Source: an uncultured Gemmatimonadaceae bacterium (GTDB taxonomy: Bacteria > Gemmatimonadota > Gemmatimonadetes > Gemmatimonadales > Gemmatimonadaceae). From it: a stretch of DNA of 64,000 nt. The position numbers and the translations under genes are program-made. Below the pieces are notes generated by a model. The model was not told the DNA's origin. It saw only the letters and a program-made list of their open reading frames with translations, and searched no databases. The DNA lies in the NCBI GenBank assembly GCA_963790305.1, contig CAWBOC010000010.1, forward strand, positions 1 to 64,000. The letters run 5' to 3'. Below, piece by piece: positions 28 through 61,553 of this stretch. The stretch's first letter is position 1. The number at the start of each line of letters is the position of its first letter.

Positions 28-897
28 TTAACTAGCGCGTTGTAACTCATCTCAGCCTCGACGGGCGTACGATACCCTAACGCGGAATGCCGTCGCTTCC
101 GATTGTACCAGATCTCAATGAACGCGAAGAGCTCACGACTCGCCTGCTCGCGACTGGAGAAGACGCCATCGACGAGCAGTTCCTTCGTCAGTGTCGCAAA
201 GAAACTCTCGGCGACCGCGTTGTCCCAGCAATTACCCACCCGACTCATGCTCGGCGTAAAGCCGGCCGCGCGGAGGAGCGTTTGGTAGGCGCCACTCGCG
301 TATTGCACGCCGCGATCGGAATGATGCAGGCCCCCGCGGGCGCCGCGATGCGTGAGGGCCATGCGGAGCGCGGCGAGCGCGAGCTCCTGGTCCACGCGCG
401 TGCGGAGCGCCCAGCCTACCACGCGGCGCGTCGCCAGATCGAGAATGACGGCGAGATAGAGCCAACCCTCGCGCGTGGCGATGTAGGTGAGGTCCGCCAC
501 CCACACGCGGTCCGGCGCGCCCGCGGCCTCGACCCCGAACTGCCGCGCGAGCACGTTGGGCGCCACCCGCTCGGCGTGATCCGATTGCGTGGTGACGCGA
601 AAGCGCCGCGCACTCTTGGCGCGAATCCCCGCCGCCCGCATCAGCCGCGCGACGCAATGCTTCCCGCACCGAATGCCCAGCGCCCGCAGCTCCTGATGCA
701 CGCGCGGACTCCCGTACGCCCGTGCACCTCCGCATGCACCTGCCGAATCTGTCCCGGAGGCGACGGTCCTCCTGGACCCGCTCCGCGAGCGGACGCGCAC
801 GCCAGGCGTAGTAGCCGGCCCTCGACACCTCCAGCACCCGACACATCGTGGTGATGTGGAAGATGCGGGCGTGCGCGCGGATGAACACGAACCTCAT
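28..897 (-). pseudogene. IS3 transposase OrfB (rve/DDE), frameshifted in this sequence
   Basis: MCRVLEVSRAGYYAW, WVADLTYI, HHSDRGVQYAS, NCWDNAVAESFF and YNRKRRHSALGY motifs, spread over more than one frame. Confidence 0.85.
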
Positions 898-1196
898 CGT
901 GCATCCCTGGCGAAGAAGGCCGTCGCTTTTTTTAGGATGTCGCGCTCCTCGGCGAGCCGGGCGTTCTCCTGCCGCAGCCGGCGATTCTCCTCCTCGAGCG
1001 AGAGCACCCGCGTCGGCGGCACAATCGGCCCGTCGCGATCGGCTTCGGCCCGCCGTCGCCAAATCCGCAAGGATCTCCGGGTTCACCCCGAGGTCGCGCG
1101 CAATATCCGCCAGCTGGTCGGGAGGGCCTCCACGAGTCGCACCGCCTCACGCCGAAACTCGTCCGTGTACGCTGTTCGTCCCCGTTTCTTTTTCAT
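894..1196 (-). pseudogene. IS3 transposase OrfA (HTH + leucine zipper), frameshifted in this sequence
   Basis: GGAGGTG RBS, then MKKKRGRTAYTDEFRREAVRLV...IARDLGV...EENARLRQENARLAEERDILKKATAFFARD, readable only across about two frameshifts (~1120, ~1070). Confidence 0.8.
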
Positions 1197-1273
1197 TTCA
1201 CACCTCCTGCCTCGAATCTCTCTCGAGGCGGTTGAGGTGTCCACTTAAACCGGGGGAAGTCCCCCTCCCCCCA

Positions 1274-1362
1274 ACCTTCGGGTTGCGCGAGGACAGTTTT
1301 TGGCGCCAGGAATAATCCGCCTGATCCGCTGAATCCGCGTCCCAACTTCGAACCTGGATGCC
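1274..1362. repeat. Right half of a ~210-bp MITE-like palindromic element (full copy at 59332-59540)
   Basis: Aligns by eye to 59439-59536 (GCGCGAGG..TTGGCG.CAGGAA..ATCCGCCTGATCCGC..ATCCGCGTCCCAACTT.GAACCTGGATGCC). Confidence 0.85.
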
Positions 1363-1375
1363 GGCCTCAGGATGT

Positions 1376-2504
1376 TCAGCTTTCCCAGGGTAGACTACGG
1401 ACGCCCAAAGTGACCGTAGTTCGTCGTCTCACGATAAATCGGCCGCCGCAGGTCGAGGCGCTCGATGATCGCGTTCGGCCTGAAATCGAATTTGTCGGCG
1501 ACGTACCGCTCGGCCCGCAGTGGATTGCCCGTTCCAAACGTCTCCACGCTGACGGACACCGGCCGCGGACGGCCGATCGCATAGGCCACCTGCACCTCGC
1601 ACCGGTGCGCGAGGCCCTCGCGCACCACCTGTCGGGCGACGTAGCGACCGAAGTACGCGCCGCTCCGATCCACCTTCGACGGATCCTTCCCGCTGAACGC
1701 GCCGCCGCCGTGGCGCGCCGCGCCGCCGTACGTGTCGACGATGATCTTGCGACCGGTGACGCCGCAGTCGGTCGACGGGCCACCCTCTACGAAGCTCCCA
1801 GTGGGGTTGACCAGGATCGCGAGGTTCTCGTGATGCCACTCGCCGAGCACGTCGGGAATGAGCGAGTCGGTGAGGTACTCGCGAATCGCCACCTGCGTCA
1901 CGTCGGGCGCGTGCTGGGCAGACACGAGCACGGTGCGCACCTCGGCGGGGAAGCCTGACGAGTCGTACGCGACCGAGACCTGCGTCTTCGCATCGGGTCG
2001 CAACCAGGGTGCCTTGCCCGACCTCCGGTCTGCCGCCAGTCGGGCCGCCAGCGCGTGCGCAAGCAGAATCGGGAGCGGCATCAGCGCGTCGGTCTCATCG
2101 GTCGCATAGCCGAACATGAGCCCCTGATCGCCGGCGCCGCCGACGTCGACGCCTTGCTTGATCTCCTGCGCCTGGTGCGAGATGAGCTGCGTCACGCGCA
2201 CGCCATCGGCGTGGAACGCCTCAGCGGGGTCGACGTAGCCGATCGAACGGATGGCCGCGCGAGCGAGCTTCTCGTGATCGACGCGCGCGCTCGAGGTGAT
2301 CTCCCCCGCCAGGACGACGTTGCCCGCCTTGCAGAGGACTTCGCACGCGACGCGCGCGGTGGGGTCCTGCTCGAGGTGCGCATCGAGCACGCTGTCGGCG
2401 ATGAAGTCGCACACCTTGTCGGGGTGACCTTCGGAGACCGACTCCGACGTGAAGACATGGAGGGCGGTGCGGGTAGCGGGGCGAGGTCGTGTCGCGATTG
2501 CCAT
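1376..2504 (-). CDS. metK: S-adenosylmethionine synthetase
   Basis: FTSESVSEGHPDK, GAGDQG, GVTGRKI, GGGAFSGKDPSKVDRS and YGHFGR motifs. The ORF stops at 1395, but the usual LPWE tail follows 1 nt out of frame and ends at 1376 (probable 1-nt insertion). Confidence 0.97.
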
Positions 2505-2539
2505 GGATCGTGTCCTTCAGTTGAGGTCCCCCGCCTCAC

Positions 2540-2580
2540 GAGAAAACGGCCTGCGACTCCGAGGAGTCGCAGGCCGTTTC
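2540..2580 (-). terminator. Intrinsic terminator in metK leader (riboswitch expression platform)
   Basis: Minus strand GAAACGGCCTGCGACTCC-TC-GGAGTCGCAGGCCGTTTTCT: long GC-rich stem ending in a U-run, about 35 nt upstream of the metK ATG. Confidence 0.8.
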
Positions 2581-2584
2581 GCCG

Positions 2585-2651
2585 CGACTTAGACGGTTCG
2601 TGCGGGATTGCTCCCGTGCGCGGCCCGTCAAATCGGGGAAATCGCCGCGCA
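2585..2651 (-). ncRNA. SAM-II/SAM-V-like riboswitch aptamer (H-type pseudoknot)
   Basis: P1 TGCGCGG/CCGCGCA; L1 contains GATTT; P2 CGATTTGACGG pairs with CCGTC-T-AAGTCG with one bulged U; CGGGA-GCAA-TCCCG hairpin in L3; lies directly upstream of metK. Confidence 0.72.
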
Positions 2652-2656
2652 TCGGC

Positions 2657-2685
2657 AACATCACTACTCCGGGGCGCCACGTCAA
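2657..2685 (-). promoter_or_regulatory. Putative sigma70 promoter for the riboswitch-metK transcript
   Basis: TTGACG (2685-2680), 17-nt spacer, GATGTT (2662-2657); predicted +1 coincides with the 5' end of the aptamer. Confidence 0.45.
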
Positions 2686-2720
2686 CCCTGGAACGCCCGC
2701 TATTTGCATTATGACCCGAC

Positions 2721-3455: not shown

Positions 3456-3521
3456 GCAGCCCCGCGCTCGCGCGATAGTTTCGAGAAGAGCCCGGGTCCA
3501 TTTCCCGCCAAATCACTGCAT

Positions 3522-3881: not shown

Positions 3882-4439
3882 ATGGGCATGGCTGCCCCGT
3901 TGTACCACACCGCTGAGATGGTGCGCGAGCTCATCGACGAGACGCGCCACTGGCCGCGGTACGAGACCGTGCACGGCGAGCTGCTGGTGACGCCCGCGCC
4001 GCGCCTGTGGCACCAGGAGGTTGTCGCTCGCCTTCTCGTCGCGCTCCGGTCCTACGTGGAGCGCGAACGTGTCGGGCACGCGTTCGCCTCCCCCTCCGAC
4101 ATTTCGTGGGGGCCGGACACGCTCGTCCAGCCGGATGTCTTTGTCGTGCCCACCGAGGAAGCGCGCACGCTGAACTGGTCAAAGGTGACGACGCTGCACC
4201 TGGCCATTGAGGTCCTGAGCCCGAGCAGCGTCCGGGCCGACCGGTTCACGAAGCGCCACCTGTACCAGGACGTCGGCGTTCCGCTCTACTGGGTCATCGA
4301 CGCCGAGAATCGCGGCGCCGAGGTCTGGACGCAGGTCGACCTCTTCCCGCGCACGGAGAACGAGTGCCTCGTCTGGAGGCCTAACGGCGCTACCGAGCCG
4401 TTCGAGATGCCACTCGAGGAGCTCTTCCGACCGATCTAG
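3882..4439 (+). CDS. Uma2 family (PD-(D/E)xK-like) putative endonuclease
   Basis: RYE...GEL..TPAP...HQ, VQPDVFV, LAIEVLSPSS...DR..K..LY...GVPLYWVID; start chosen at ATG 3882. Confidence 0.9.
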   Translation: MGMAAPLYHTAEMVRELIDETRHWPRYETVHGELLVTPAPRLWHQEVVARLLVALRSYVERERVGHAFASPSDISWGPDTLVQPDVFVVPTEEARTLNWSKVTTLHLAIEVLSPSSVRADRFTKRHLYQDVGVPLYWVIDAENRGAEVWTQVDLFPRTENECLVWRPNGATEPFEMPLEELFRPI

Positions 4440-4442
4440 CGG

Positions 4443-6022: not shown

Positions 6023-7334
6023 ATGCCTACGATACCCGCGAAACTCCGCCTCGTCATCGTCGCCTGTCTGCTCGCGTGCGACGTCGCCGTCGCGCAGCAT
6101 CTCGGACGTGCCCGCCGTGGCGCCGATCGATCGCGTCATTGCCATTCGCGCGTCGGGCCTTCCAGCGGCCGGCGTGGTCCGCGTCGAAACCGCGGTCATC
6201 GACAATGGCGGCCGGCGCTGGACGGCTCACGCGACCTACCGCGCCGATGCACGCGGCACGATCGACCTCGAGCGGGATGTCCCGCTCTCCACGAGCTTCG
6301 GAGACCTCGGTCCCGGTGGCCTCTTCAGCGGCATGCGGGGCGACGGCGACGACGACGATCGCCTCCGATTTCTGACTCGTGAGGCGGCGAGCGTCATTAC
6401 CAGCGTGATCCTGACGGATTCGAGCGGGGCACGGCTCGACTCGGTGTCGATCGAGCGGCCATTTCTGGGACCGGGTGTGCGCGAGTTGGTTGTAAGCGAC
6501 GGAGGGCTGCGCGGGCATCTCTATCTCCCGCCAGCCGCGCCCGCGCCGGCCGTGCTCGTCCTTGGTGGATCGGAGGGTGGATACGCGGACCAGGTTGCGG
6601 CGCTGCTGGCGACCAATGGGTTTGGCGCGCTCAGCCTCGCGTACTTCGGAGTCGACGGCCTTCCGACGCAACTGGGCGAGATTCCGCTCGAGTACTTCGA
6701 GCGCGCTCTCGCCTGGCTCGATTCGCACGCCGAGGTGGCGCGCGGAGGCGTTGCCATTCTCGGAACATCGAAGGGCGCGGAGGCGGCGCTCCTCGTCGCG
6801 AGTCGCTCGCCGCTGGTGAGGGCGGTCGTGGCCTACGCGCCAAGCTCGGTGGCGTGGGACTGCATTTGTTCCGGTGCGTCGCGCTCGTCGTGGACCGCCG
6901 GCGGGAAGGGGATCGTTTCCGTCCCGCAAATGCCCCCAGTCGCGGTCCCCGCCGGCCAGCCCGTTAGGCCGGGCGTCAACTACCTCAATCGGCTTCAGCG
7001 CGCGCCGGAGGGCGCGACGATCGCCGTCGAGCGGATTCGAGGACCATTGCTGTTGGTCGCGGGCGAGGAGGATCAACTCTGGCCCTCGCTGCTCATGGCG
7101 CAGCGAATCATGCAGCGGCGCGGGGAGCGCGGCGGTCACGCGCGCGATCGATTGCTGGCCTACGCCGGCGCTGGCCACCTCATTGGCAAGGCATTTCTCC
7201 CGTCGGGATCCACCCGCATCGCGGGCGGCAGAATCGAGACCGGTGGGACGCCGACCGCGAACGCGCGCGCGCAGGCGGACGCGTGGCCGAAAGTGATTGC
7301 GTTTTTGAAAGAACAGCTCGGTGGGCGGCAATGA
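6023..7334 (+). CDS. Acyl-CoA thioesterase/BAAT-family alpha/beta hydrolase, probably secreted; likely frameshift near 6100
   Basis: LGGSEGG, GTSKGAE nucleophile, GEEDQLWPS, AGHLI. A signal-peptide-like MPTIPAKLRLVIVACLLAC starts at 6023 in another frame than the 5970-7334 ORF. Confidence 0.82.
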
Positions 7335-8822: not shown

Positions 8823-9713
8823 CTACTCAGTCACTCCGGCCAGCTTGATATCGAACGGCCCGATCCCGTGCAGCTGGATCACCGTCTCGCCTTTGGCTCC
8901 GCCATAGTGCGGCTTCTTCGGCGGAATGTAGAGAAAGTCGCCGGGATGATACTCACGCAACGTTCCGCCTTCCTTCTCCCCCATCGACAGCAGGAACGTC
9001 CCCGAGAGCACCGTTAGGTGCTCGGCGTTTGGATGGTAGTGGGCGGGGAACGTGTATCCGGCGGGGAACTTGAGGCGGATGGTGTAGTCGCCCTTGCCAG
9101 ACGGGTCGCCGTGCAGCACGGCCACCTGCATTCCCGACTTGAAGCCGGGCACGTCGAGCGGCTGGAAGGAGAGGCCGGCGGCAGCGTTCATCGTCATGTC
9201 GTCGCCGGCGGGCTCGAGAACGACCACCGTCACCGGCGCGGGCGCCGGCGCTTGTACCTGAAGGTCGCTGTTGAAGATGTCGTGCGCGATCTTCCACTCC
9301 GTGCCGACCTTGCGGAACTGCACCAGGTACTTGCCACGGTCGGTAATCGGCCCCTGGTCGCCGGTGAAGGAGAACGTGTACGTGCCGGCGTCGGTCGCGA
9401 GCTCGCCACTGCTCGCGATGTCGATCTTCGTGGGCGTGAGGCTGAGCGATGCGTTGGGCGAAAGAACCCCCCGCCAGGCTTCTCGGATTGCCGCTTGCCC
9501 GCGGGCGGCGGGCGCGTTCGGAATCATGAAGACGGCATCCGTCGCGTACAGTTGCGCGATGGCGTCCACGTTCCTCGATGCGACTGCTTGCTCCATCTGG
9601 CGATTGATGGCTCTGATCGCCGCATCTTCACTCGCCACGTTCACGCGAGGCGTAGTGGCGCATGCCACAGCGGCGACAACGGCCAGCAAATGGAATGGCT
9701 TTGCCCGAATCAT
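8823..9713 (-). CDS. Lipoprotein: NTF2/SnoaL-like (DUF4440) domain fused to a cupin domain
   Basis: Lipobox VAC; LYATDAVF..P...GQAAIR...GKYL...WKIAHDIFNSD; cupin PAHYHPNAEHLTVLSG...PHY. Confidence 0.85.
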   Translation of the reverse strand: MIRAKPFHLLAVVAAVACATTPRVNVASEDAAIRAINRQMEQAVASRNVDAIAQLYATDAVFMIPNAPAARGQAAIREAWRGVLSPNASLSLTPTKIDIASSGELATDAGTYTFSFTGDQGPITDRGKYLVQFRKVGTEWKIAHDIFNSDLQVQAPAPAPVTVVVLEPAGDDMTMNAAAGLSFQPLDVPGFKSGMQVAVLHGDPSGKGDYTIRLKFPAGYTFPAHYHPNAEHLTVLSGTFLLSMGEKEGGTLREYHPGDFLYIPPKKPHYGGAKGETVIQLHGIGPFDIKLAGVTE

Positions 9714-9911: not shown

Positions 9912-10814
9912 ATGCCCCCCGTCTACGACCCCCTCGCCGCCCGCAACGACATCGATGAAGGCCTGCGCTTCGAGCAGCATGGCGTTCTCGACAGCGCCCT
10001 GACGCATTACCAGCGCGCCGCACGCACGACGAATGACGCCGCACTCATCTCCGAAGCCTTTCGTCGACAAAGCAGCGTGCACCGAACACGATGCGAATGG
10101 GAGCTTGCGGTCGCGTGTGCCGAGCGCGCCATCACGTCCGCTCGTGAGGCACGGCTGGACGATCTCCATTCGGAGGCACTGTCCGCGCTCGCGGCCGTGC
10201 ATCGCAGCCGCGGCGATCTCGACGAGGCCGAGGTGCTGCTCAACGGGGCGCTTCGCATCGCGCACGATGAGCGCGTGCGGGGCATCGTTCTCCAGAACCT
10301 CGGCGGCATTGCCGCCGAGAAGCACGATCTCGATACCGCGCAGCACAAGTTCGTCGAATCGTATGGCTGCTTTCGTCGCTCGGGGTATCGCCGGGGCGAG
10401 GCGTTCGCGCTCAACAACTACGGCCGCGCGCTGCTCGAGGGCGGGAACGAGGCCCAGGCGGCGCGTGTGCTGGCGCAGGCGGTGGCCATCGCCCGCGACG
10501 TCGAAGATGAGGAGCTGGTCGCGCTCGCCACGCTCAACGTGGCTGAGACGCTGTACCTCGTCGGCGACCTAACGAAGGCCGAAAGCCACGTGAGCGAAGC
10601 GCTGGGCTACTTCAATCACACGCAGAACGCCTGGCGCCAGATCGAATGTCTCCGCCTCCTCGGCGACATCACGGTGAAGGCGCAGGAGGCGGCGACGGCG
10701 GTGCACTGCTACGTGCGCGGGATGCAGCTCGCCTTGCGCATCGGGGCGAGGCAGGAGCTGACGGTGCTGGCCGAGTGTCTCACGAAAGTGCGGCCGCTGT
10801 TGGCGGGAGCATAG
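9912..10814 (+). CDS. Tetratricopeptide-repeat protein
   Basis: Helical repeats with NLG/NNYG/NVA and A...Y patterns over the whole length. Confidence 0.8.
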   Translation: MPPVYDPLAARNDIDEGLRFEQHGVLDSALTHYQRAARTTNDAALISEAFRRQSSVHRTRCEWELAVACAERAITSAREARLDDLHSEALSALAAVHRSRGDLDEAEVLLNGALRIAHDERVRGIVLQNLGGIAAEKHDLDTAQHKFVESYGCFRRSGYRRGEAFALNNYGRALLEGGNEAQAARVLAQAVAIARDVEDEELVALATLNVAETLYLVGDLTKAESHVSEALGYFNHTQNAWRQIECLRLLGDITVKAQEAATAVHCYVRGMQLALRIGARQELTVLAECLTKVRPLLAGA

Positions 10815-10836: not shown

Positions 10837-12402
10837 CTACCGCAACGGAAGCACTCTCCCGTCGAGATTCCCAGGAAATCGCACCCCGGCCCAACTGGCC
10901 AACGTCGGCGCGAAATCCACCGTCGATACCCGGTCAGTGAGGCGCCCGGCGCGCACGCCCGGGCCCATGAAGATGATCGGCACGTGACGGTCGTACCAAT
11001 ACATGGAGCCGTGTGTCGTTCCCCGCTCGCCGCCGAGAATGTTGGCACGAAGCCAGGCCTCGACGCCGTCGCGGCTGAACGGTCCGGCCACCCGTCCCGG
11101 GTAGAGTGAGCGACGCATCATCACCGCGAAGGAATCCGACGGCGCGCGTCGCATGAGCTCCTCGATCGTCCAGGCGTCGGCGATCGCGGGCTGCCCCTTG
11201 AGCGCCGCGACGATCCGCGCCGGCGCCGTGGCACGATCGGTCGACACCGCCTCCGTCACGATCTGCTGCCACACCTGCCGCTCGGCAGCCGTTAGGCGGC
11301 GGGAGCCGGGCGTAGCCCGCGAATCCTCTGGGGGCGTCATCACGCCGTGATCGGCGCTGAGCGCGACGATGTACCGTTCGCGCCCTACGGTGCGATCGAG
11401 AAAGGCGAAAAAGGCGCCGAGGCGGCGGTCGAGACGGTAGAGATTGTCGAGCTGCTCCCGACTGAACGGGCCGTACTCGTGGCCGACCGCATCGGTCTGC
11501 GACACGGACACGGCGAGCAGATCGACCGACGCATCGCGGCCGAGCCCGAGCTCGGTCACCATCGCCTCGGCGAAGTCGAGCGTGGCGGCATCGGACAGCG
11601 GGGTGCGCTCCATCCATGCGCGCAGCGTGTTCGTGTCGCGGTTCTGCGAAATGTCGCCGAGTCGATGCGGAAAGAACGTATGAGTCCCGTCGCCTTCGTG
11701 GGCCGCGGTGTCGGGACCGCTCAGGTGCACCATCGACGCCGGCGCGGTGAACGTCCACACCGTGTCGACCATGTAGCGTGTCACGACGTCGCTGTTGAAT
11801 CGCCTCACCCACGCCGGAAGGCTGTCCCGGTAATACGTCAATGTCACGAAGCCGCCGGCGGGCTCGAACCAGTAGACGTGACCCTTCACGTGCGCAGCGG
11901 GGAGAATCGCACCGCGATCCTTTCCTGACACCGACGCGACGAGTGAGCTGGGGCTCGCCGCGACGATCCAGTCGGCGAGGCCGGTAGCCATGAGGTTGCG
12001 CGGTGAAACCCCCGGAAGCCCCGCGCCAACGGTGCGAACGGTCGAGTCGCCAACGTTCGACATTTGCACCCATCGCTCGCCCGAGCGCTCGTACCACCCG
12101 TTGCTGACGATGCCATGCGTGGACGGATGGACACCCGTGGAGAGTGATGCATGCCCCGCCGCGGTGACCGTGCGACCGTGGTCGTACGTGGCGTTGGCGT
12201 AGAACCGGCCCTCACTCAGCAGGCGACGAAACCCGCCCGTCCACACGGCGCGATAGTGATCGAGAAGATCGCCGCGAAGCTGATCGACCGTGATCCAGAC
12301 GATGAGGGGCGGTGGCGCTGCGGGCGCGGGAGGCTCGGGCGCGCGCGCGCAGGCCAGCGCGGCGAGAGCGAGGAGAACAAGAAGTTTTCCGCTGCAGTTC
12401 AT
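10837..12402 (-). CDS. Alkaline phosphatase superfamily (PafA/NPP-like) lipoprotein
   Basis: ITVDQLRGD, TVTAAGHA.LSTG (Thr nucleophile), TDAVGHEYGP, SADHG, THGS.Y.YD.HVP; lipobox LAC; AAGGA RBS before 12402. Confidence 0.9.
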   Translation of the reverse strand: MNCSGKLLVLLALAALACARAPEPPAPAAPPPLIVWITVDQLRGDLLDHYRAVWTGGFRRLLSEGRFYANATYDHGRTVTAAGHASLSTGVHPSTHGIVSNGWYERSGERWVQMSNVGDSTVRTVGAGLPGVSPRNLMATGLADWIVAASPSSLVASVSGKDRGAILPAAHVKGHVYWFEPAGGFVTLTYYRDSLPAWVRRFNSDVVTRYMVDTVWTFTAPASMVHLSGPDTAAHEGDGTHTFFPHRLGDISQNRDTNTLRAWMERTPLSDAATLDFAEAMVTELGLGRDASVDLLAVSVSQTDAVGHEYGPFSREQLDNLYRLDRRLGAFFAFLDRTVGRERYIVALSADHGVMTPPEDSRATPGSRRLTAAERQVWQQIVTEAVSTDRATAPARIVAALKGQPAIADAWTIEELMRRAPSDSFAVMMRRSLYPGRVAGPFSRDGVEAWLRANILGGERGTTHGSMYWYDRHVPIIFMGPGVRAGRLTDRVSTVDFAPTLASWAGVRFPGNLDGRVLPLR

Positions 12403-14870: not shown

Positions 14871-14876
14871 GGACGG

Positions 14877-22500: not shown

Positions 22501-22674
22501 GGCTACGCGATCGTCGGCGGCCTGCTCTTCTCGACGATCTTGACCCTGTTCCTCGTTCCGGCCGTGTACGTAATGATGGATCTCGCACGCGCCAACGTTC
22601 GCAGCCGGAGCGAGGCCCGGCGGCGGCGGAAGGCGGTGGAAGAGCCTGCTTTGGCAATGGAGGACGCACGGTGA
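19576..22674 (+). CDS. RND efflux permease (AcrB/AcrD/AcrF family)
   Basis: 1032 aa; IRRPV, GIVVDDAIIVLEN, GLVTKNSILLVE, RLRPILMTS. Confidence 0.96.
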   Translation: MKISDLSIRRPVLTSMLAVALVLFGVLGYINLSVREYPDVNAPVISVSTFLRGANPRVMESAVTDILEEELSTVPGLRTLTSSSAEQFSSITLEFTLDRDIETVAQDVRDKVSRVRDRLPDDIEEPVIAKEDADAQPFYWMALTSDSYNLLQLSDIGDRLVKPRLQTISGVGRAQVFGERRLSMRVWVSPSELAARGLTVQDISSAIQSRNVEVPAGRIESDRREFTVRSMGELKTPDEFGNIVVSNTGGQMIRLKDIAKVELGPEDERTTLRYNQVPAVAIGVIRQSKANLVDVADGVKAELPAIQAALPPGVKLIEAFDGSIFVKRSIQEAEETLLIAGFLVVLIIFVFLRNLRATVIPALAIPTSIVATFGVMYFLGFSINNLTLLALTLAIGIVVDDAIIVLENAYRHQEELKESPEVAAVNGTREIAFAVIATTISLIAVFTPLAFLQGNTGRLFNEFGIAVAGAVAVSGFVALTLTPMLCARILRVPPRHGPLYQRLERGFESLASGYKRSLGWAVANRRITVGASALIIVAAVFIFRALEREFVPPEDRGFFFTIVIAPEGSSLGYTDGYTKQVEAILGRTKDIEGSFGLVGAFGPVSQGIVFSRLNDWSDRDRSVQDIINEVQMQFFGIPGVFAFANNPPAFGWGSPLQFVVRHPDFDSLTKGMAVLTQRAATINGLINIDTDLKINKPELNVTFDRDRAEDLGVPIRDIAGTLGTMLGGGRVSTFTMNNKLYDVMVQLAPEERATPSDMSGLYVRGNDNQLVQLSAVARVNETVGPQGLNHFNRVRSFTLSAGLAPGFTLGAALDSLNRVAREVLPPGSTIELAGESRELEESGSALYFAFALALIVVFMVLASQFESLVHPLTVLMAVPLAVTGALATLLIAGSTLNLYSQIAMVLLIGLVTKNSILLVEYANQLKERGLSTIEAILESGRVRLRPILMTSVATIMGALPIALGLGAGSASRRPLGYAIVGGLLFSTILTLFLVPAVYVMMDLARANVRSRSEARRRRKAVEEPALAMEDAR

Positions 22675-49200: not shown

Positions 49201-52200
49201 GGGTGATGCCGAGGTCGCGCAGCTCGACCTGCGTGCGGGTCCAGGAGAGGTCCAGGGCGCGCTGCGCCGCGTACGGTTCATCGTATCGATCCACCAGCTC
49301 GATGGCGCGCTCGCGACTGTCCGCCATCAGTGTGGTGAACGCCACACGCGCCGAGCCGCCGGCGGGAATCGTGACGCGCACGCGCAACGCGAAGATGGGA
49401 TCGAGCACGGCCCCGGTGGTGTTCGACAGAGGCCCCGGCGCCTCGAGCGCAGCGGGGACGCGTGGGGTGCGGCCTCGGCCCAGGAATCGCGCGCGATCGG
49501 TCTCGCAGCTGATCGCGGAGCGCAGGTGTGACTCGACGGCGAGGACGTGCGCTCCCCAGAGCGGCTTCTCCGTGGAGCCTCGCGGGCGCCGGCTCGCCAG
49601 GATCGCGGAGTGCTCGGGACGCCATTCCGTCTGCACGAACAGATTCGCGAACGCGGGATGCGCGCGGTCGCCCACGATCGATCCGATCACGACTTCGGAG
49701 TAGCTCGTGAGCTCCACCTGGCGTTCCTCGCCGGACCGATTGGTGACGATCACGCGACGCACTTCCGCGCCGTCGTCGGGCACGACCGCGATCTCGGTGG
49801 TCGTCTCGAGATCGCCATCCTGCCGGTGGAACACCACGCGATCGAGCGCGAACACCACGTTGTAACTGTCAGCCGGGGCGGCGAGTGGCTGGTGGCCCAC
49901 CGACCAGGTGAGGTCCGAGGCGAGATCGCGCACGTAACAGAATTGCCCGTAGTTATCGCGCGTCCCATCGTTGCGCCACCGCGTGACGGCGAGACCGTTG
50001 GCGCGCGAATAGCCGCACCCCGCCGCGGTGATCATGATCGCGTACGGCACGTTGCCGAGCAGCGCGATGCGCGGCTGCGGCGTGTCGGGAGAGGTGAACT
50101 CTCGCACGGCGGGCCGCTCGGATTCGCCCGGTGTTCGCACGCCCTCGACTTGCGGCTGCTGTGCCTCCTGCCAAACGAATCGACGTGGGATGCGCTCGAA
50201 GAGCAGCAGCTCGGCGGCGCGCACCATGGGGTCACGGTGGAAACGCTGCTGCCACCGGAGGTGTGTCAGCATGTTGGTCAACGACGCCAGGCCCATTCCC
50301 AAATGATGCGCCATGAAGGCATGGACGACGCCAAAGCGGCCACCTTCCGGGCGCGTCCAATCGAGTGCGTCACGGAAGCCGAAGCTGCCGAGCGCGCCGA
50401 GCTCCTCGAGCGCCGCCGCGTTGCGGAGGGCGGCATGGGGCTCCACATGCATCGCGAGCAGCGAGGCGTAGGGCGCGACGACGAGATCTTTCGCCAGACC
50501 TCGTTTGAGCGCGAGGTCGGGAACGCCGAAGGCGCGGTACTGGTACGTGCCGATCCGATCTCGCAGGTTGTACGCCGATTCGGAGATGCCCCAGGGTACG
50601 CCGCGCTCGTGTGCGTACGTCATGTGGCGGCGCACCGCGCCCTGGTACGTCTGATCGAGCAACGTGAAGGGATACGAGCGCATGACGAGCAGCGGCATGA
50701 GATACTCGAACATGCTCCCGCTCCAGGACACGAGCGCCGTCGCGCCAGACCGCCGCGTGAGGGTGCGCCCCAGCCGGAACCAATGTTCGACGGGCACGTC
50801 GTTCTTGGCAATGGCGATGAAGCTGGCGAGCCTGGCCTCCGATGCGAGGAGATCGTAGAACGAGTTGTCGAGACCGCCGCGCGATACGTCATACCCGATC
50901 GAGAACAGCTTCCGGCGGTTGTCGAAGAGAAACCGGAAGTCCATCTCCATCGCGTAGTCGTGGGCCCGGTTGGCCAGCACGCCGAGACGCCCGACTTGCT
51001 CGGAGAGGAACGCGGAGTCAGGCGCGACGGTTCGAATCGGCGCTCTCATCGATGATGGCTTCGCGTCGAGTGCCACGAGCTCCGCGCGGTGGCGCTCGGC
51101 GAGGGCGGTTGCCCAATCGAGCCATGCGACCGCTTTCGACAGCGTCTCACGCGATGCGCCCGCCCGGCGTAGCGCGTCCGCCGTTTCGCGAGTCTCCCTA
51201 ACGACGCGCTCCAGCAGCGGCAACGGAGCGTCCGCCGTCGCTTCCTTGGCGATCGTCGCGCGAAGGGCGCGTGCCCACCGAGTGGCATCGGTTACGGCGC
51301 GCCATGCGACCGGATCTCCAACGCGTCCGGCAGACAAGGGCTCCTTGGCGGCGTCTTCGGCAAGCATCAACGCAGCCTGCAGCGCTTCATGCACGCGCGT
51401 ATCGACGATCGGCTCGTCCGAGACGTGGAGACAGGCCTGCTTCAGCGCCAACATGCATCCGGCGAGATTGCCACTGTCGACGGTGGAGACGTAGGCAGGC
51501 TCGAGGACGCGAAGGTCGGTCAGCTCATACCAGTTGTAGAAGTGACCACGGAACCGACGCATACGCTCGAGCGAGCGGAACGTGCCTTCCAGGCCGTCGA
51601 TCATCTCGCTGCGCGTGATGAAGCCCAGGTCGTACGCACTGACGATCGAGAGCAGCTGCAAGCCCGATGTTCGTCGGCGACGTGCGTTTGGCGACGACGG
51701 GCTCCGGATCCTCCTGAAAATTGTCCGGCGCGAGCCAGTGCGTCGCCTCGGTGACGAACCGCTCGAAGAACCGCCAATGGAGGAGCGCGTATCGCATCGA
51801 CTGTGAGCGCTCCTCGGCGCTCAGACGCAGCTCGCGCCGTACGGCGGGAGCACTGGACGCATGCGCCACGTGCGGTGCGCCGATCCATCCCGCCACGAGC
51901 GGAACGGTACAGACGAGGAACAGCAGCCACGCGCCTGCGCTGCCGCCGGCGCGGGCGCCGGCGAACGACGGTACGTACGGCGGCATTCCGACGGCCGCGA
52001 TTGCCAGCACGAGCGCGCTGACCATCACCGCGATGGCAACTGCCGAGGCCATGCGCTTCCAGACTTCGAGGCTGGCGCGGGAGGTCGAGCGCTCGGTCTG
52101 TGACGCTGTCTGCCACTCGAGCAGGTTGCGGCGGGAGATGAGCAGTCGCCACAACGTGCGGGCGATCGCGTCGGCCGAGACGCCCGCCTGGTGCGGAAGG

Positions 52201-54935
52201 AATACGAGCGCGAGCCCCAGCTGATGCAGGCTCGTCACGGTGTCGCGTCCCACGGCCGCGTAATACGCGCGCCAGGATGTGCCGCGCGGGGGACGGACGA
52301 GCGCGAGGAGCGTCGAGAACACCCACGGAAACGCGATCGTCGTCAGGGCGATCATCGTCCACAGCCACGGCGAGCCGGGCAGGACCACCCAGCCAAGGAG
52401 CAGCAGCGCGAGCTGCGCGATCTCGACCGTAGAGCGCCGCAAATTGTCGAAGATCTTCCAGCGCTGAATGGCTCCAAGAACGTTGCCCGCGCGGCCGTCG
52501 GCGGTCGGCACGCGTTGGGAACAGCCAGGGCAAGAGCTGCCAATCCCCGCGAATCCAGCGATGCTTGCGACGCGTGTACGTGAGGTAGCGCGTCGGATAG
52601 TCGTCGAAGACCTCGACATCGGTCACGAGCGCGGCGCGCGCATATGCGCTCTCGATGAGGTCGTGGCTCAACAGGGCGTTCTCGGGAAACCGCCCGTGAG
52701 TCGCGCGGTCGAACGCGTCGACATCGTAGATGCCCTTGCCGGTGAAGCTCCCCTCGCCGAACAGGTCCTGGTAGACGTCCGACACCGCCGTCGTATACGG
52801 ATCGACGCCCGGATGGCCGGAGTGAATGGCCGCGAAGCGCGAGCGGTGCGCACTCGTGAGGCTCACGCCCACCCGTGGCTGCAGGATGGCGTACCCTTGC
52901 TCGACGACGCCCCGCGACTCGTCGAACACCGGGCGATTCAGCGGATGCGCGAGGGTCCCGATGAGAATCTGCGCCGCGTCGTGCGGCAGGACGGTGTCGG
53001 AGTCGAGCGTGAGGACGAAGCGCGCTTGCCGCAGCGGGTCGACATCGCCCACGATCGTGGCGAAGGCGTCCTGCGCACCCCCGCGCAGGAATGCGTTGAA
53101 CTCGCGCGAGCTTCCCACGCTTGCGCTCCCAGCCCATCCACACGCCGCTGGCTCTGATTCCACTTGCGAGGGCGATGAAAGAGATAGAACACATCGTCGG
53201 CGCCGCCGGCGTAGCGTGTGTTGAGCTCGCGCACACCCTCCACGGCGGCGGCGACGATCGCTTCGTCCCCGGGGAGCGTCTCGCTTGCCGCGTCGGTGAA
53301 ATCGGAGAGCAGCGCGAAGTGCAAGCGCGGGTCGCGGTTCGCGAGATACTGAATCTCGAGGTGCTCGAGCGCCTCGCGCGCGGCGTCGATCGATGGCAAC
53401 AGCGTGGGGACGACGACCGCCGTGCGGTACTCCGGTGGAACTCCCGTGCTCGCGCATGTCCAGCTTCGGCACAATGCGCGGCGCGACGATCCATGTAACG
53501 AGCTGATTGACGGCCCCCACCGCCATCTCACTGGCCGGAACCATCGCCACGAGCGACGACGGCCAGCATCGACTCCCGCGCTGGCCGGTGGGAGGACGGA
53601 AACGAGAAGCGCGAGACCAGCCAGCATCAACAGGAGAATCGAGCCGAAGTACACCGCCTTGGCGTGCGAGAGCACCCCGCGATACAGGCGCTCGCCGGCC
53701 GTCGGCACGTACGCGGTGCCATGCTCGAGCTCCCGCGCCCCATCACCGATGAGGTAATAGCCCACGTGCGTTCTGCGCTCGTCATCAGGCGCGCGGTCCG
53801 CGGCGTCGCGAGCGAGCGCGATCGCTGCGCGTGCGACGTCAGCCTCCGCCAGGCGAGTTCGCTTCGCGATGCGCTCAACGACGTGCCGATACCGGTCGCG
53901 CGTCTCGAACGTCATGAGGCTGTGGACGCCGGCCGGGTCCTCACGGAGGACCTGCTCGACGACGCTTTGCGATTCAACGAAGCCTTGCCAGTCGAGACGC
54001 GCGATGGCGCGCAGGCTCGTGATGCTGTTCGCGACGGTGATCTGCGTGATGGCGAGCCGCTGGTTCGAGCTCGCCGCCGCCGCTTCGTGGCTCATGCCGT
54101 CTTCGGCCATCCACTGCTCGAGCCAGAGCAGCGGGGTGAAGTCGGTCTGGTACGAGCGGATCTGCTGGAGGAAGCGCGTGACGAACGCCGGCGTCAGCGG
54201 CGGATGACTGTCCACGAACGCGGCCAGATCATCAGCGAGCGCCTGGGGCGTGCGCTCCGACGCATCGCGCAGCCGGCGCGCCCAGTCGTCGGCGAGCTCG
54301 ACTTCGCGCGTACGCGCCATGACGCGCAACGCCATCCGGCGAATGTTCTCGACCAGTCCGAGTCGGAACATCGTCGGAATGGCCCAAAGCTCTCCGACCG
54401 TAAGAACCGAGACGCGCTGAAACTCACGCGTGAAGAGATCGATCGTCGCGAGCTCGAGGTGCCCTTCGGTATGCGCGATGAGCTCGATGGCGAGCTCGTA
54501 TACGCGCGGATATCCCGCCAGCGGCCCGGAGGCGAGCTTCGGCAGCTCCCGATAGAACCCGCGCGGCATGCTCGCGCCGATCTCCCGGATGTGCTCGAGG
54601 ATCACGTACCAGTTGTCGAGCAGCCATTCGCCAGCGGGCGAGATGTCGACACTCCGGTCGCTCGCCAGTGCCAGCTCGTGGCGTGCTTCGTCGAGGATGC
54701 GCCGGGATTCGGCGAGACGAGAGAGGAGGGGTCCCGGCCCGAGCGTTAGGCGGCTCGGCCCCTCGACGAGCCGTTGGCCGCGCGCGATCGCGCGCGCGTG
54801 CTCGGCGAGCCGCTCGGCGCCGAAGAGCTCGCCGCGGATGGGTCCGACGAGTGGTGGCGCGCCGCCGTCGCCTCCGAGCGATCGGAGACGTGCGAGAATT
54901 CGCCGAGTCCGGGTCGGGGGAGAGGCGGTCGCCAT
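46244..54935 (-). CDS. ndvB: Cyclic beta-1,2-glucan synthase (Cgs/NdvB-like; glycosyltransferase, glycoamylase-like and GH94 regions); about six frameshifts in this sequence
   Basis: EWLLDN, MGWERKRGK, LDSDT, LSHDL.E, RWIRGDWQ, TSPTNIG, SWSGSMFEYLMP, QSSGAYGFRDQLQD, DWNDG, GVRENG.QYTH, GGWTWYTGSA; breaks near 53570, 53445, 53150, 53107, 52518 and 51662. Confidence 0.9.
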
Positions 54936-56407: not shown

Positions 56408-57412
56408 AGGTTTCCCTTTTCTCGCCGGTGATCGGTCTCCTCGCGACGCTCTTCGGAGCGTGCTCACGCGATGACGCCGACGCCATCGAGGCCGTCGGCA
56501 CGGTCGAGATTCGCGAGCACGACGTCGCGCCAATGACGGCAGCGCGTGTCGTGCGCCTGCTGGTCGACGAAGGCGCGGCGGTCGAGGCGGGCGATACCGT
56601 CGCCATACTTTCGATGTCGACTTTGGCCGCCGACATTGAGCAGGCGCGGGCGCGCCTCGCGACCGCGCAGGCCGTGCTGCGCGAGGCGGAGGCTGGCCCC
56701 CGGTCTGCCGAGATCGAGCGGGCGGAAGCGGACCTTCGCGCCGCCGGAGCGGAAGCCGATCGCGCGGCCAAGGACCTGGTGCGCATTCAGGCGCTGACGG
56801 AAAGCGGCGCTCTCGCCGAGCAGCAGCTCGATGCGGCACGCACGGTTGCGACCACGACCGCCAATCGGCGCGACGCCCTGCGCGAGACGCTGGGACTTCT
56901 CCGCCAGGGAACGCGTCCGGAGCGAATCGCCGGCGCGCGGGCGGAGGTGGCGACCGCACAGGCGGTGCTCGCCGCCGCGCAGGCGACGCGCTCCGACCTG
57001 GTCCTGCTCGCGCCGGCGAACGGCATCGTGCTGGGCCGGCACGCGGAGGCGGGTGAAGTCGTCCCGCCGGGAACTCCGGTGATGACGGTCGGCGAGTCGT
57101 CGAAGCCGTGGGTGCGCGTCTACGTTTCCCCGGCCGACGCCGCGCGCCTAACGGTGGGCGGCGCCGCGGTGGCGTCTCTGGACGATCTCCCCGACCGGGA
57201 GTTCCCGGGCCGCATCGTATCCCTGGCGACGAAAGCCGAATTCACTCCGCGGGTCGCCCTGACGGAAGACGAGCGCGCCGACCTGCTGTTTGCGGTGCGA
57301 GTGGAGCTGGAGGATTCGAGCGGAACGCTGAAGCCGGGATTGCCGGTCATCGTGAGATTTCTCGCGAATGCGGAACGGCGGAATGCGAAACGCGACGGGT
57401 TCGCGTCCATGA
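56404..57412 (+). CDS. HlyD-family membrane fusion protein (reads through into the ATPase in this sequence)
   Basis: Lipobox-like FGAC; coiled coil; LAPANG.V, AEFTP, LKPGLP; the 3' end assumes the TGA of the ATGA overlap at 57409-57412. Confidence 0.85.
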
Positions 57413-59540: not shown

Positions 59541-59610
59541 GCGAGCCCCGTCCCGGCCCCCGGCAGGCTGACCAGATTTACTTGGGCGAAGATCTCAAAC
59601 CGGAGCACGA

Positions 59611-60036
59611 ATGCCAACGCGGAAATCCAGCGCCGCCTGGGAAGGCGGACTCAAGGGCGGGAAAGGCAGCTTCAAGGGCGAATCGGGCCTGAGCGGTGCC
59701 TACTCGTTCGGGTCGAGATTCGAGAATGCCCCGCAGTCCAACCCGGAGGAGCTCCTCGCGGCGGCGCTGGCCGCGTGCTACAGCATGGCGCTCAGCGGGG
59801 GGCTCGAGAAGAACGGCACCCCGCCGACGCGCATCGCCACCGATGTCGCATGCACCATCGACAAGGTCGGCGAGGGCTTCAAGATCACCAAAATGCATCT
59901 GACCGTCCGCGGCAAGGTGCCTAACGTCAATGCCGCGACGTTCGACAAGATCGCCCAGGCGACCAAGGATGGCTGCCCGGTGTCCCAGGTGTTCAAGGGG
60001 AACGTGCCGATGACGCTGGAGGCGCGGCTGGAGTAG
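59611..60036 (+). CDS. osmC: OsmC family peroxiredoxin
   Basis: W.G.LK.GKG, SRFE, NPEELL.AA.AAC.SMALS, CPVS. Confidence 0.93.
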   Translation: MPTRKSSAAWEGGLKGGKGSFKGESGLSGAYSFGSRFENAPQSNPEELLAAALAACYSMALSGGLEKNGTPPTRIATDVACTIDKVGEGFKITKMHLTVRGKVPNVNAATFDKIAQATKDGCPVSQVFKGNVPMTLEARLE

Positions 60037-60129
60037 AGGTGCTCGAGGTGCGTCGAGGTGCGTCTAGGAAATCGAGGCGACTGCCAGCACTTGATCACCT
60101 CGAGCACCTCGAGCATCCTCGAGCGACCT
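60036..60129. repeat. Family A palindrome (degenerate)
   Basis: Fills the interval from the osmC stop to the next ATG. Confidence 0.82.
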
Positions 60130-61155
60130 ATGTACAGCACCTGCCTCTTCTGCCACTCGTCGCTCGGCGCCAACGAGGCGATCGAGCATTTTCCCGTCGG
60201 CCGCCGGCTCGCGTTCGATGCGACGAAGGGCCGCCTGTGGGTGGTCTGCCGCACCTGCGAGCGCTGGAACCTCTCGCCGCTCGACGAGCGGTGGGAGGCG
60301 ATCGAGGAATGCGAGCGCGGGTTCGAGGGGACGCGCATGCGCGCGTCGACCGACAACATTGGCCTCGCGAAGTTGAAGGAGGGGCTCGAGCTCGTTAGGA
60401 TCGGGCCCGCGCTGCGGCCGGAGTTCGCGGCGTGGCGATATGGGGACCAGTTTGGCCGTCGCCGCCGACGGACGATCCTCCGGGCGGGGCTGGGCTTGGG
60501 CGCGCTCGGCGCCGTCGCCGCCGGTGGGATGGCCGCAGGTGTCGGTATTGGAGGTTTCGGCTGGATGATGGTCCAGTACGCGCGCTTCATCATCGACGGG
60601 AATCCGCGAACCGTCGTCGGCGAGGTGCTGGGCCCCGACGGAAAGCCTGTCGCCGTCCGTCGCCTGCACCTGAAGCACACGCGCTGGCAGATCGACCCAA
60701 CCAGCGGCGAGCACCGCCTCGCCATCGGGTTCAAGCGCGCCGGTACCATCACACTCGTCGGGGAGGAGGCACGCCGAAAAGCGGGCATCCTCGTCGTTCA
60801 CGCCAACCGGCGTGGCGGCACGCGGTCCGAAGTGCAGAGCGCCGTGGACCACGTACAGGAGGCGGGCAGTGCGGAGGCCCTCGTCACGCAAATGGCCACG
60901 ACGAACCAACCGCTCCCCGTGTGGCGGAAGGAGAGTCAGGTGCGGAAGGTCGACGCGTTCGGCATGAGTCGCGAGCGACGCCTGGCCTTCGAGATGGCCC
61001 TTCACGAAGAGCAGGAGCGCCGCGCCCTTCAGGGCGAGCTGCTCGCCCTCGAGCAGGCGTGGCGGGAGGCCGAGGACATCGCAAAGATCGCCGACAACCT
61101 CCTCGTGCCCAAGTCCGACGAAGAATGGCTGCGCAAGCACCGCGGGGAGGAGTGA
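60130..61155 (+). CDS. Hypothetical membrane protein with N-terminal CxxC...CxxC
   Basis: MYSTCLFC...VVCRTCERWNL; central Gly-rich hydrophobic segment; C-terminal coiled coil. Confidence 0.8.
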   Translation: MYSTCLFCHSSLGANEAIEHFPVGRRLAFDATKGRLWVVCRTCERWNLSPLDERWEAIEECERGFEGTRMRASTDNIGLAKLKEGLELVRIGPALRPEFAAWRYGDQFGRRRRRTILRAGLGLGALGAVAAGGMAAGVGIGGFGWMMVQYARFIIDGNPRTVVGEVLGPDGKPVAVRRLHLKHTRWQIDPTSGEHRLAIGFKRAGTITLVGEEARRKAGILVVHANRRGGTRSEVQSAVDHVQEAGSAEALVTQMATTNQPLPVWRKESQVRKVDAFGMSRERRLAFEMALHEEQERRALQGELLALEQAWREAEDIAKIADNLLVPKSDEEWLRKHRGEE

Positions 61156-61553
61156 GCCGCGCCGCGATCTGCCTAACGCTGGCGGTCCTCATCGGCGCCT
61201 GTCGGGACGAGGACGCTCGGGCGCGTGCCCCACGCTCGGACACCGTGGCGCCAATCGGCACCGGGACCGAGCTCCTGCTCACTCGCGAGCGTCTCGCGCT
61301 GATCGAAGAGTGGATTCACGCCTCGATCGCGCGAGATGGAGAAGCGCCCACCTCGCTCGACGACGTGCGCCCCCCTGAGGCCGACGCGGCCCGCTACGCC
61401 CCGCTCGAACGGTTCCTGCGCGATGGGTGGGGGAGAGCGATCGAGTACGACTACATGCCTGCGACGCGATCCTTCGAGCTGCGCTCTCCAGGGGAGGACG
61501 GAGCGGTCGGGACAGCGGATGACGTATCGAGGGTGTCGAGGTCGTCGAGGTGA
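61152..61553 (+). CDS. Lipoprotein with GspG/T2SSG-like C-terminal motif
   Basis: LIGAC lipobox; DGWGR...Y...LRSPGEDG..GTADD; 4-bp overlap with the upstream gene. Confidence 0.72.
   Translation: MSRAAICLTLAVLIGACRDEDARARAPRSDTVAPIGTGTELLLTRERLALIEEWIHASIARDGEAPTSLDDVRPPEADAARYAPLERFLRDGWGRAIEYDYMPATRSFELRSPGEDGAVGTADDVSRVSRSSR

Follow-up and report, generated by a model that had tools for sequence, protein, structure and literature searches.

A hyper-iterated, non-palindromic octamer in a Gemmatimonadaceae genome resembles DNA uptake sequences and shares its letters with the integron R' box

The DNA uptake sequences (DUS) of Neisseriaceae, whose receptor is ComP, and the uptake signal sequences (USS) of Pasteurellaceae are 'self' words that are central to arguments on why bacteria take up DNA. 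To our knowledge, hyper-represented 'self' words are known in few bacterial groups, namely Neisseriaceae, Pasteurellaceae, and, as the highly iterated palindrome HIP1 (GCGATCGC), cyanobacteria. Here we analyzed an octamer, CGTTAGGC, with the heptamer core CGTTAGG (reverse CCTAACG), in a 64,000-nucleotide stretch of DNA (the window) from contig CAWBOC010000010.1 of an uncultured Gemmatimonadaceae bacterium (assembly GCA_963790305.1), and in the genome holding it (G000, in which the window is C10:1-64000). Like DUS and USS, this word is short and asymmetric, occurs in hundreds to thousands of copies on both strands equally, is mostly intragenic in the frames that proteins allow, is spaced more evenly than random, is common to relatives, and is surrounded by one-off variants. 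Unlike them, it has only 8 informative bases, is on or off among genera instead of varying in family-wide dialects, is not paired in terminators (15 pairs within 150 bp), and coincides with an integron recombination box; moreover, its phylum has no reported competence, and our search for a receptor gave no candidate. A literature search returned nothing on CGTTAGGC or on uptake sequences in this phylum, within the literature covered.

Three other described systems were compared. The core of integron attC and attI sites (R' box, GTTRRRY; canonical GTTAGGC) has the same letters, down to the C before them, and favours the same bases after them. The genome-wide copies of the word differ from it in that they stand alone in conserved genes, without inverse core, L boxes or hairpin, arose by substitution away from the integrase, and belong to a genome whose own attC sites use other R' boxes. 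HIP1 is likewise a hyper-iterated coding octamer, patchy among relatives and of unsettled cause, but it is palindromic and has been linked to a methylase, whereas CGTTAGGC is asymmetric and our methylase tests gave no link. Chi (GCTGGTGG) and the FtsK-orienting and architecture-imparting sequences (KOPS/AIMS) are also asymmetric, over-represented 8-mers found about once per 4 kb; those are skewed to the leading strand, whereas the word is not.

The exact count of the heptamer in the window was 25 (14 forward, 11 reverse), at precisely the positions that the initial annotation had listed. None of 100 dinucleotide-preserving shuffles of the window reached this number (mean 2.58, S.D. 1.68, largest 7). 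Most of what that annotation had said about the copies held as well: a pyrimidine follows the heptamer in 22 of the 25 (15 C, 7 T), more than half of the window's TTAG/CTAA tetramers (25 of 40) sit in word copies, and the copies differ in frame, with 11 reading xCG TTA GG, 7 C CTA ACG, 4 C GTT AGG, and 2 CCT AAC G. It had placed every copy inside a gene, which our own rough gene calls bore out for 24 of them but not for the copy at 61172, and it had put the G+C content at about 68%, which measured 65.9%. The genes that hold the copies are of unrelated families, among them AcrB, OEP, HlyD, GH94, amidohydrolase, OsmC, and Uma2.

In the whole G000 assembly (4.31 Mb, 13 contigs) 1229 heptamers were counted (601 forward, 628 reverse) versus Markov expectations of 187 (order 1), 106 (order 2), and 138 (order 3), and the enrichment over Markov expectation was 9- to 12-fold. 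The heptamer was present on all 13 contigs (0.19-0.43 per kb), which carries the enrichment seen in the window to the rest of the genome. CGTTAGGC was the most over-represented 8-mer of G000, with 855 copies versus 39.9 expected (z 129); the base following the heptamer was C in 70% and T in 16% of copies, with CGTTAGGT enriched 9.6-fold and CGTTAGGG 5.9-fold. The informative stretch consists of 8 contiguous bases with weak flanks. Beyond positions -2 and +9 the flanks were at background composition, and the flank preferences were the same in a genome of another genus, G016. Since the flanks hold no longer repeat, the copies are independent words and not copies of an element; a longer repeat of the repetitive extragenic palindrome (REP) or miniature inverted-repeat transposable element (MITE) type was ruled out by these flanks and by the 72% of copies that lie inside gene calls.

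A self-trained codon model called 3394 genes in G000 (81% coding), and these contain 898 copies. Shuffling synonymous codons within genes (50 times) gave 119.6 ± 10.4 copies (largest 145), so the observed count was 7.5-fold higher and far above the codon-shuffled null that the initial annotation had named as a possible refutation; this null is conservative because the rare codons borne by the word stay in it. Permuting codon order (30 times) gave 89.5 ± 10.6. An origin by chance, codon usage or protein motif is ruled out by the shuffles, the Markov and codon nulls, and the unrelated host families. A second word, CGTTATGC, was present 253 times in G000 versus 36.7 expected (6.9-fold) and tracked the main word across 41 relatives, with 708 copies in G016 and 5-73 in word-poor genomes; its share of the main word ranged by lineage from 0.11 (G016) to about 0.9 (G023, G036). 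Since CGTTATGC co-varies with the main word, the reader would accept CGTTAKGC. Other one-off variants surround the word like a halo and become commoner as richness rises: TGTTAGG was found at 142, 32, and 3.9 per Mb in G016, G000, and the word-poor G010 respectively.

The word also overrides codon habit. The tripeptide [SPTA]-Leu-Gly is spelled xCG TTA GGy at 409 of its 3025 occurrences in G000, which accounts for about two fifths of the genome's 1059 TTA codons, and Pro-Asn-[VADEG] is spelled CCT AAC G at 199 of 845. The word spells 184 of 5678 x-Leu-Thr and 80 of 7752 x-Val-Arg. The stop codon lies inside the word in 95 genes (51 of 883 TAG, 44 of 458 TAA), and 347 copies fall outside or across gene calls (28% of copies in 19% of the DNA). 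The word in G000 therefore occupies four open frames, stop codons, and spacers; it is a feature of the DNA and not of protein or RNA. The proposal of a DNA-level signal is thus upheld by the overridden codon habit together with the Markov and codon-shuffled nulls. By bringing rare codons (TTA, CTA, AGG, CCT) into hundreds of genes, the word makes a strong lineage marker, of use for binning, for detecting imported DNA, and in studies of codon usage.

Syntenic orthologues of window positions 19001-39000 were aligned from 8 members of the genus (79-87% identical). The 8 copies of G000 in this segment were kept at 39 of 54 aligned orthologous positions, versus 28.5% for all other coding 7-mers and 31.8% for those in the same phase, comparisons that are not phylogenetically independent; the word is thus conserved at synonymous sites of orthologues, where the initial annotation had advised looking. 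Orthologues lacking the word carried the synonymous preferred codon (xCG CTC/CTG GGy) with no indel. The copies are therefore substitutions, and integron insertion scars are ruled out. A wider comparison was made with rpoB, aligned across 27 other genomes. Among its proto-sites (xCG CTS GGy), the word was found at the same few positions in several genera: at position 1711 in genus g1, g44, G302, G016, and G321, and at position 3505 in 3 of 4 g1 genomes, g44, G302, G016, G321, G165, and G040 of family f3. The g1 genome G003 reads CGCTCGG at position 3505, and the word-poor G010, G013, G291, and G027 read CGCTCGG or CGCTGGG at those sites. Word-rich and word-poor genomes interleave on this single-gene tree, and the comparison does not separate shared ancestry with losses from convergence on a limited set of convertible sites.

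The orientation of the copies was random, 615 of 1216 neighbouring pairs in G000 lying on the same strand. It was also independent of GC skew, with 277 forward copies under positive and 324 under negative skew, and 270 and 358 reverse copies respectively; contig C9 (1.02 Mb, monotonic skew) held 129 forward and 145 reverse copies. Both this and the near-equal totals of 601 and 628 agree with the claimed lack of strand bias that set the word apart from Chi and KOPS. Gaps between copies in G000 were near-exponential overall (mean 3444 bp), but short gaps were scarce: 91 were below 500 bp versus 164 ± 11 simulated, and 23 below 200 bp versus 69 ± 8. In G016, at 1.7 copies per kb, the coefficient of variation was 0.73, and 18 gaps were below 100 bp versus 69 expected. 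The spacing in both genomes was therefore more even than random, and of the 15 pairs within 150 bp in G000 only 2 were of the '-+' type. The deficit of close pairs, strongest at the highest density, argues that the benefit saturates per stretch of DNA. Such saturation fits a fragment-level process (uptake, survival, packaging) or a loading site needed once per interval, and does not fit site-autonomous mutation or repair.

The largest word-free stretch of G000 is C13:206818-244255 (37 kb, G+C 63.2%). This low-GC stretch holds a surface-polysaccharide biosynthesis cluster, Flp-pilus genes, and a TIR-domain fusion; its AcrB gene (in three pieces) and a GFO/IDH oxidoreductase gene (split) are broken, and it looks like imported DNA.

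The distribution of the octamer was determined in the 41 relatives and in a sample of 301 genomes of the phylum, where genomes with strand-balanced counts of at least 150 were termed word-rich. In these tallies the unpublished genomes G015, G084, G123, and G202 count solely among the word-poor. Every one of the 9 genomes of the window's genus carried 382-1006 copies, which, together with the presence of the word in several other genera, answers the question of relatives in the affirmative. In the other genera of the window's family, counts among the 41 relatives ranged from 6 to 6360, with 6 of 16 genomes word-rich; the figures were 3 of 8 in family f3 and 0 of 8 in family f2, where copies occurred in same-strand clusters instead. 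A 260-kb sample of G016 held 447 heptamers (1.7 per kb), 25 times the order-2 expectation. In the 301-genome sample, 12 of 71 genomes of f1 and 5 of 125 of f2 (all of genus g72) were word-rich, and no word-rich genome was found among 102 of families f4-f12. That the force on the DNA is sequence-specific is shown by the word's size and exactness, by its upkeep at synonymous sites, and by the fact that frame, gene and strand make no difference to it. The suggestion made from the window, of a signal that is selected or created with bias in the manner of HIP1 or DUS, is thus supported by the nulls, the conservation, and the relatives.

As to the nature of this force, we tentatively favour, at somewhat below an even chance, the reading that CGTTAGGC may be a fragment-level tag of the DUS/USS kind, spread by biased DNA exchange. 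A sequence-specific protein would read CGTTAGGC, with its weaker twin CGTTATGC, as a 'self' word, on double- or single-stranded DNA and in either orientation. Fragments with at least one copy would have an advantage when kin exchange DNA, be it during uptake, in surviving once inside the cell or in packaging by the donor. Word-bearing alleles would then replace word-less alleles, so that the word would pile up in every frame that proteins tolerate. We infer that the force would be biased transfer instead of direct selection on chromosomal function, and that a dedicated reader would exist. Because the sites number thousands, transmission bias (molecular drive) explains them more economically, as has been argued for DUS and USS. 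The over-even spacing is predicted by a benefit of one copy per fragment, and not by mutation or repair bias acting site by site. Further points in favour of this reading are the conversion of the same rpoB proto-sites in several genera, the halo of variants, the imported look of the largest word-free stretch, and an uptake core encoded in G000.

Several observations weigh against biased exchange. The identity of the word with the integron R' box is unexplained by it. The second-largest word-free stretch of G000 (C3:54640-83694, 29 kb) contains native-looking housekeeping genes. Whole families share a stable DUS or USS that varies by dialect, whereas this word is all-or-nothing, and neither the same word nor a dialect of it runs throughout the family; in GTDB genus g44 two species had 3896 and 4141 copies and a third 66. 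In a 225-kb sample of the word-poor G010 there were 4 copies versus 6.1 expected and no replacement word, so that, as far as one poor genome can show, the trait is the presence or absence of one word and not a set of dialects. We know of no report of natural transformation in the phylum, and the literature search likewise found none. Finally, none of the candidate readers tested (ComEC, secretin, IntI, RecC, Uma2, two methylases, and two pilins) tracked richness. G000 encodes ComEC, DprA, a PilQ-like secretin (below the family cut-off), and 8 pilin-like open reading frames. All 41 relatives carry ComEC and 38 of them the secretin, word-rich and word-poor alike; being near-universal, this machinery does not explain the on/off pattern, and both were ruled out as the switch. 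For ComEA in G000, TIGR00426 gave no match and HHH_3 a marginal one (28.9 bits) plus a fragment at a contig edge, so that this protein was not clearly found. Two of the 8 pilin-like frames (GspH/FimT-like minor pilins) had only weak matches everywhere (24-34% identical), in rich and poor genomes alike, and were rejected as the reader. Homologous recombination is reported to be common in soil populations and associated with ComEC loci (PMC7305173).

The secretin matched G000 twice, at C3:186339-187694 (253.2 bits) and C11:41993-43348 (252.7 bits), in near-identical frames of 662 aa. The C3 match lies near the contig end, and the twin matches are probably an assembly overlap and not a true duplication.

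Among the alternatives to an exchange tag, a cis-acting chromosomal site under direct selection, bound or loaded by a nucleoid, condensin-type or repair protein, deserves most attention, though we consider it unlikely. One site would be needed every few hundred to few thousand bases, which the over-even spacing, the use of both orientations, the retention within the genus, and the stable differences in density between lineages would all suit. On the other hand, spread over 1200-6400 sites the benefit of each would have to be minute, related genera manage with neither the word nor a substitute, none of the proteins searched for emerged as a candidate, and the known sites KOPS and Chi are polar while the word is not.

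A second alternative, which we hold to be rather unlikely, arises from the match of the word to the integron core GTTRRRY. This match, pointed out at the outset, proved real and went further than claimed, since attC sites in cassette arrays of this order have the complete 8-mer as their R' box. The word contains the GTTAGGC core, at which crossover is predicted at G/TT from the sequence. The same-strand clusters of family f2 are cassette arrays, with GCCTAAC/GTTAGGC pairs 82-125 bp apart about every 550 bp. In 21 aligned attC sites of G027 and G025 the R' box CGTTAGGC was invariant, including the C before GTT, and the base after it was mostly G, then A or C, with T rarest; the base following the word genome-wide in G000 and G016 showed the same ranking, G above A and C, and T rarest. 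The coincidence is unlikely to be chance, because the flanking C and the following-base preference match too. With our own hairpin finder, the same R' box was found near the integrases of the word-poor G032, G026, G009, and G018, and mixed with other boxes in the word-rich G302, G239, G321, and G040; many contigs end at the integrase, so that most arrays lie outside the view. IntI, or another tyrosine recombinase that prefers the same half-site, would on this view be the reader, and lone R boxes would be secondary or decoy sites, or handles for cassette recruitment. All word-rich genomes belong to the one order in which such integrons were seen, and G000 itself encodes an integron integrase (C9:694984-695919, 449 bits).

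The integron of G000 gives this alternative mixed support. A direct search of 36 kb around the integrase revealed a same-strand array downstream of it (C9:696603-711895), with no fewer than 14 attC sites, each about 135 nt long; an attC covariance model run on the whole genome gave no match among the 150 of 4004 candidates scored. The R' box was GCGTTCTGC (GTTCTGC) in 9 sites and GCGTTATGC (GTTATGC) in 5, with R'' boxes GCAGAAC/GCATAAC, and in none of the 14 was it GTTAGGC. The putative attI near 696140 reads GCAGAATAGGCGTTATGCC. Five of the 14 attCs and this putative attI carry the second word, CGTTATGC, as their R box. The main word is therefore not the crossover box of the genome's own cassettes, while the second word is one; GTTCTGC was not enriched in G000 (1.2-fold). 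The rule that word-rich genomes avoid GTTAGGC attCs holds in G000 and is broken by G302, G239, G321, and G040. The genome-wide copies lie on all 13 contigs instead of being confined to an array beside the integrase, and they lack the attC hairpin, with no inverse core R'' 50-150 nt upstream (cf. the two '-+' pairs) and no L boxes. Orthologues, as described above, show substitutions and no insertion scars, and no known mechanism multiplies recombinase half-sites.

The integrase itself was independent of richness. It exceeded the family cut-off in 28 of the 41 relatives, including the word-poor G009, G010, G011, G013, G014, and G018, and the word-poor G291 had three matches, two of them over the cut-off. 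It was not found in the word-rich G005, G012, G020, and G022, and only as a fragment in G016. In a tree of 21 IntI sequences rich and poor genomes interleaved, and no alignment column separated them, so neither the presence nor the allele of the integrase is supported as an on/off switch. The tree (loci L005 and L169-L188) mixes families f1, f2, and f3, which suggests that integrons may have been transferred within the order. In G000 (C9:694912-711895) the integrase gene points toward the array, not away from it.

Biased exchange and the integron may also be combined. The word would then be an exchange tag, the first DUS-type system outside Proteobacteria, whose specificity was seeded by the integron R' box and is shared with it; we regard this joint proposal as bold and a long way from probable, about on a par with a recombinase reader. 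If it were true, word-reading lineages would preferentially import the DNA of kin and cassette arrays, because arrays carry one word every 0.5-1 kb, and natural transformation would be coupled to integron cassette traffic in abundant, uncultured soil bacteria.

A DNA methyltransferase target, whose mark would be a self-label for uptake, defence or repair, is a quite improbable alternative. Of 37 G000 proteins with a DPPY-type motif, two resemble DNA methylases. One is an N6-adenine methylase-like protein of the Eco57I/MmeI type (1021 aa, C7:233022-236087), followed by an SNF2/ResIII helicase gene (locus C7:233022-238370), and enzymes of this type read short asymmetric words. The protein was found in 38 of the 41 relatives, at 87% identity within the genus, 50-61% within the family, and 36-41% in sister families, and its gene is inherited vertically. 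In the larger sample it occurred in 188 of 205 genomes of f1-f5 (G000 not counted) and 0 of 92 of f6-f12, a range that covers every word-rich lineage. It was present in all 17 word-rich genomes of the 301, but since nearly all word-poor genomes of the order carry it too, this is unremarkable. Nor does any residue cleanly split 8 rich from 8 poor genomes, and the enzyme was rejected as the switch. The other methylase, of the D12 class, is absent from G016 and G302, both of them very rich, which removes it as the reader. Restriction targets, moreover, are usually avoided and not enriched. The vertical inheritance of the Eco57I-type gene, confined to f1-f5, is unusual for a seeming restriction or defence module.

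We think it very improbable that biased mismatch repair or context-specific mutation produced the word as a side effect, whether in the manner of very-short-patch (VSP) repair or as has been proposed for HIP1. The word is hyper-iterated within coding DNA, as HIP1 is, and its on/off distribution is what a mobile gene for repair or methylation would give. However, turning CGCTSGG into CGTTAGG requires C to T and S to A, and VSP-type repair is excluded because these changes run opposite to its T:G to C:G correction. The over-even spacing would not be expected from site-autonomous repair, and one-off neighbours are enriched instead of cleared. Uma2-family nucleases proved unrelated to richness: none was found in the rich G006, G007, G022, G023, and G036, and 8-12 copies were present in the poor G011, G014, and G018, so their copy number is not the switch. 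A regular-expression search for C5 methylase motifs in G000 found none, no family search for Vsr or C5 methylases having been made. Barely conceivable is a polar signal for recombination or segregation, as Chi and KOPS are, although the word's length (8 bases) and density (1 per 3.5 kb, as for Escherichia coli Chi) would speak for it. The random orientation with respect to GC skew, on C9 as elsewhere, in effect excludes such a signal, and a search for RecC (PF04257), which did not extend to AddAB and AdnAB, gave no match in G000 and a match in a single one of the 41 relatives.

Under biased exchange, the word would represent a DUS-like kind of signal in a poorly studied, abundant soil phylum. 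Its close genera, which run from baseline to 1.7 copies per kb, are a natural on/off series for finding the reader protein, and allow molecular drive and selection to be tested as builders of such words. The origin of integron gene cassettes is a long-standing open question, and the identity with the R' box raises a testable link by which a word drive acting across the genome would bear on how cassettes are exchanged, or even on how they arose.

The individual copies in the window are as follows, each being CGTTAGGC unless another form is named. In the first part of the window, a copy of the form CGTTAGGG at 76..82 (reverse) reads xCG TTA GGG in a gene on the reverse strand. The copy at 4380..4386 (reverse) lies in a Uma2-family gene (3834-4439, forward) with the sense reading CCT AAC G, and that at 6962..6968 (forward) in a BAAT/acyl-CoA thioesterase-like gene as C GTT AGG. 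The sense reading is C CTA ACG for CGTTAGGT at 9012..9018 (forward; gene 8823-9713, reverse), for CGTTAGGT at 10568..10574 (reverse; TPR gene 9912-10814, forward), and for 11290..11296 (forward; phosphodiesterase-family gene, reverse). One DUF5916 gene (12627-14927, reverse) holds two reverse-strand copies, CGTTAGGT at 13117..13123 as xCG TTA GGT and one at 14506..14512 as xCG TTA GGC.

For the 8 copies between 19001 and 39000, the aligned genus orthologues can be given. An AcrB-family gene contains two forward copies: CGTTAGGT at 21737..21743 (ACG TTA GGT), where 6 of 7 orthologues read ACG CTC/CTG GGy, and 22496..22502 (CCG TTA GGC), kept in 4 of 7. Further forward copies were kept in 7 of 7 orthologues at 23491..23497 (outer-membrane efflux gene), 28576..28582 (gene 27783-29789), and 30458..30464 (beta-lactamase-fold gene), in 6 of 7 for CGTTAGGT at 24552..24558 (HlyD-family gene), and in 4 of 6 for CGTTAGGT at 34625..34631 (amidohydrolase gene). 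The copy at 36440..36446 (reverse), in an M20 peptidase gene (forward; sense C CTA ACG), was kept in 3 of 6 orthologues, 2 reading CTG for CTA. In public sequencing data, none of 22 runs contained more than 0.12 of the sampled words, in every case as contigs, and 4 were compared with the window. Among the 40 of 1625 differences listed, none fell inside these 8 copies; the base after the word at 21744 was changed from T to C in 3 runs, which carries no weight as evidence.

In the remainder of the window, CGTTAGGT at 41463..41469 (forward) reads xCG TTA GGT in another DUF5916 gene (40340-42760). Three copies fall in GH94 coding sequence on the reverse strand: 48200..48206 (forward; sense C CTA ACG), 49010..49016 (reverse; C GTT AGG), and CGTTAGGG at 51197..51203 (reverse; C GTT AGG). 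The sense reading is again C CTA ACG at 54744..54750 (forward; gene 52938-55082, reverse) and at 57147..57153 (reverse; HlyD-ABC fusion gene, forward). The copy at 59920..59926 (reverse) reads CCT AAC G in the sense of an OsmC gene (forward), and CGTTAGGA at 60393..60399 (forward) reads C GTT AGG in gene 60058-61155. The copy at 61172..61178 (reverse) is the one outside gene calls, 17 nt past the end of that last gene.

Other features of the DNA were noted. Two intergenic repeats of the window, one of about 110 bp at 19182-19298, which matches on both strands (palindromic), and one of about 80 bp at 27610-27693, have many copies of 82-92% identity across G000 and the genus and look like REP/MITE-type elements. 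Soil and root metagenome contigs join across window positions 27647-33024, skipping 2.8-5.4 kb, which suggests a segment that is variable among relatives, although the joints are of low likeness and may stem from other organisms. The rpoC match of G000 (C9:421854-426027) falls into two pieces in different frames (model positions 15-863 and 858-1145), which indicates that the gene is split or frameshifted or that the assembly is in error there. G000 also over-represents words unrelated to the main one, namely AATGCGGA/TCCGCATT (628 copies versus 113 expected), TAGCGCCTCT/AGAGGCGCTA (166 versus 53), and words of the TGACTCCTGA type.

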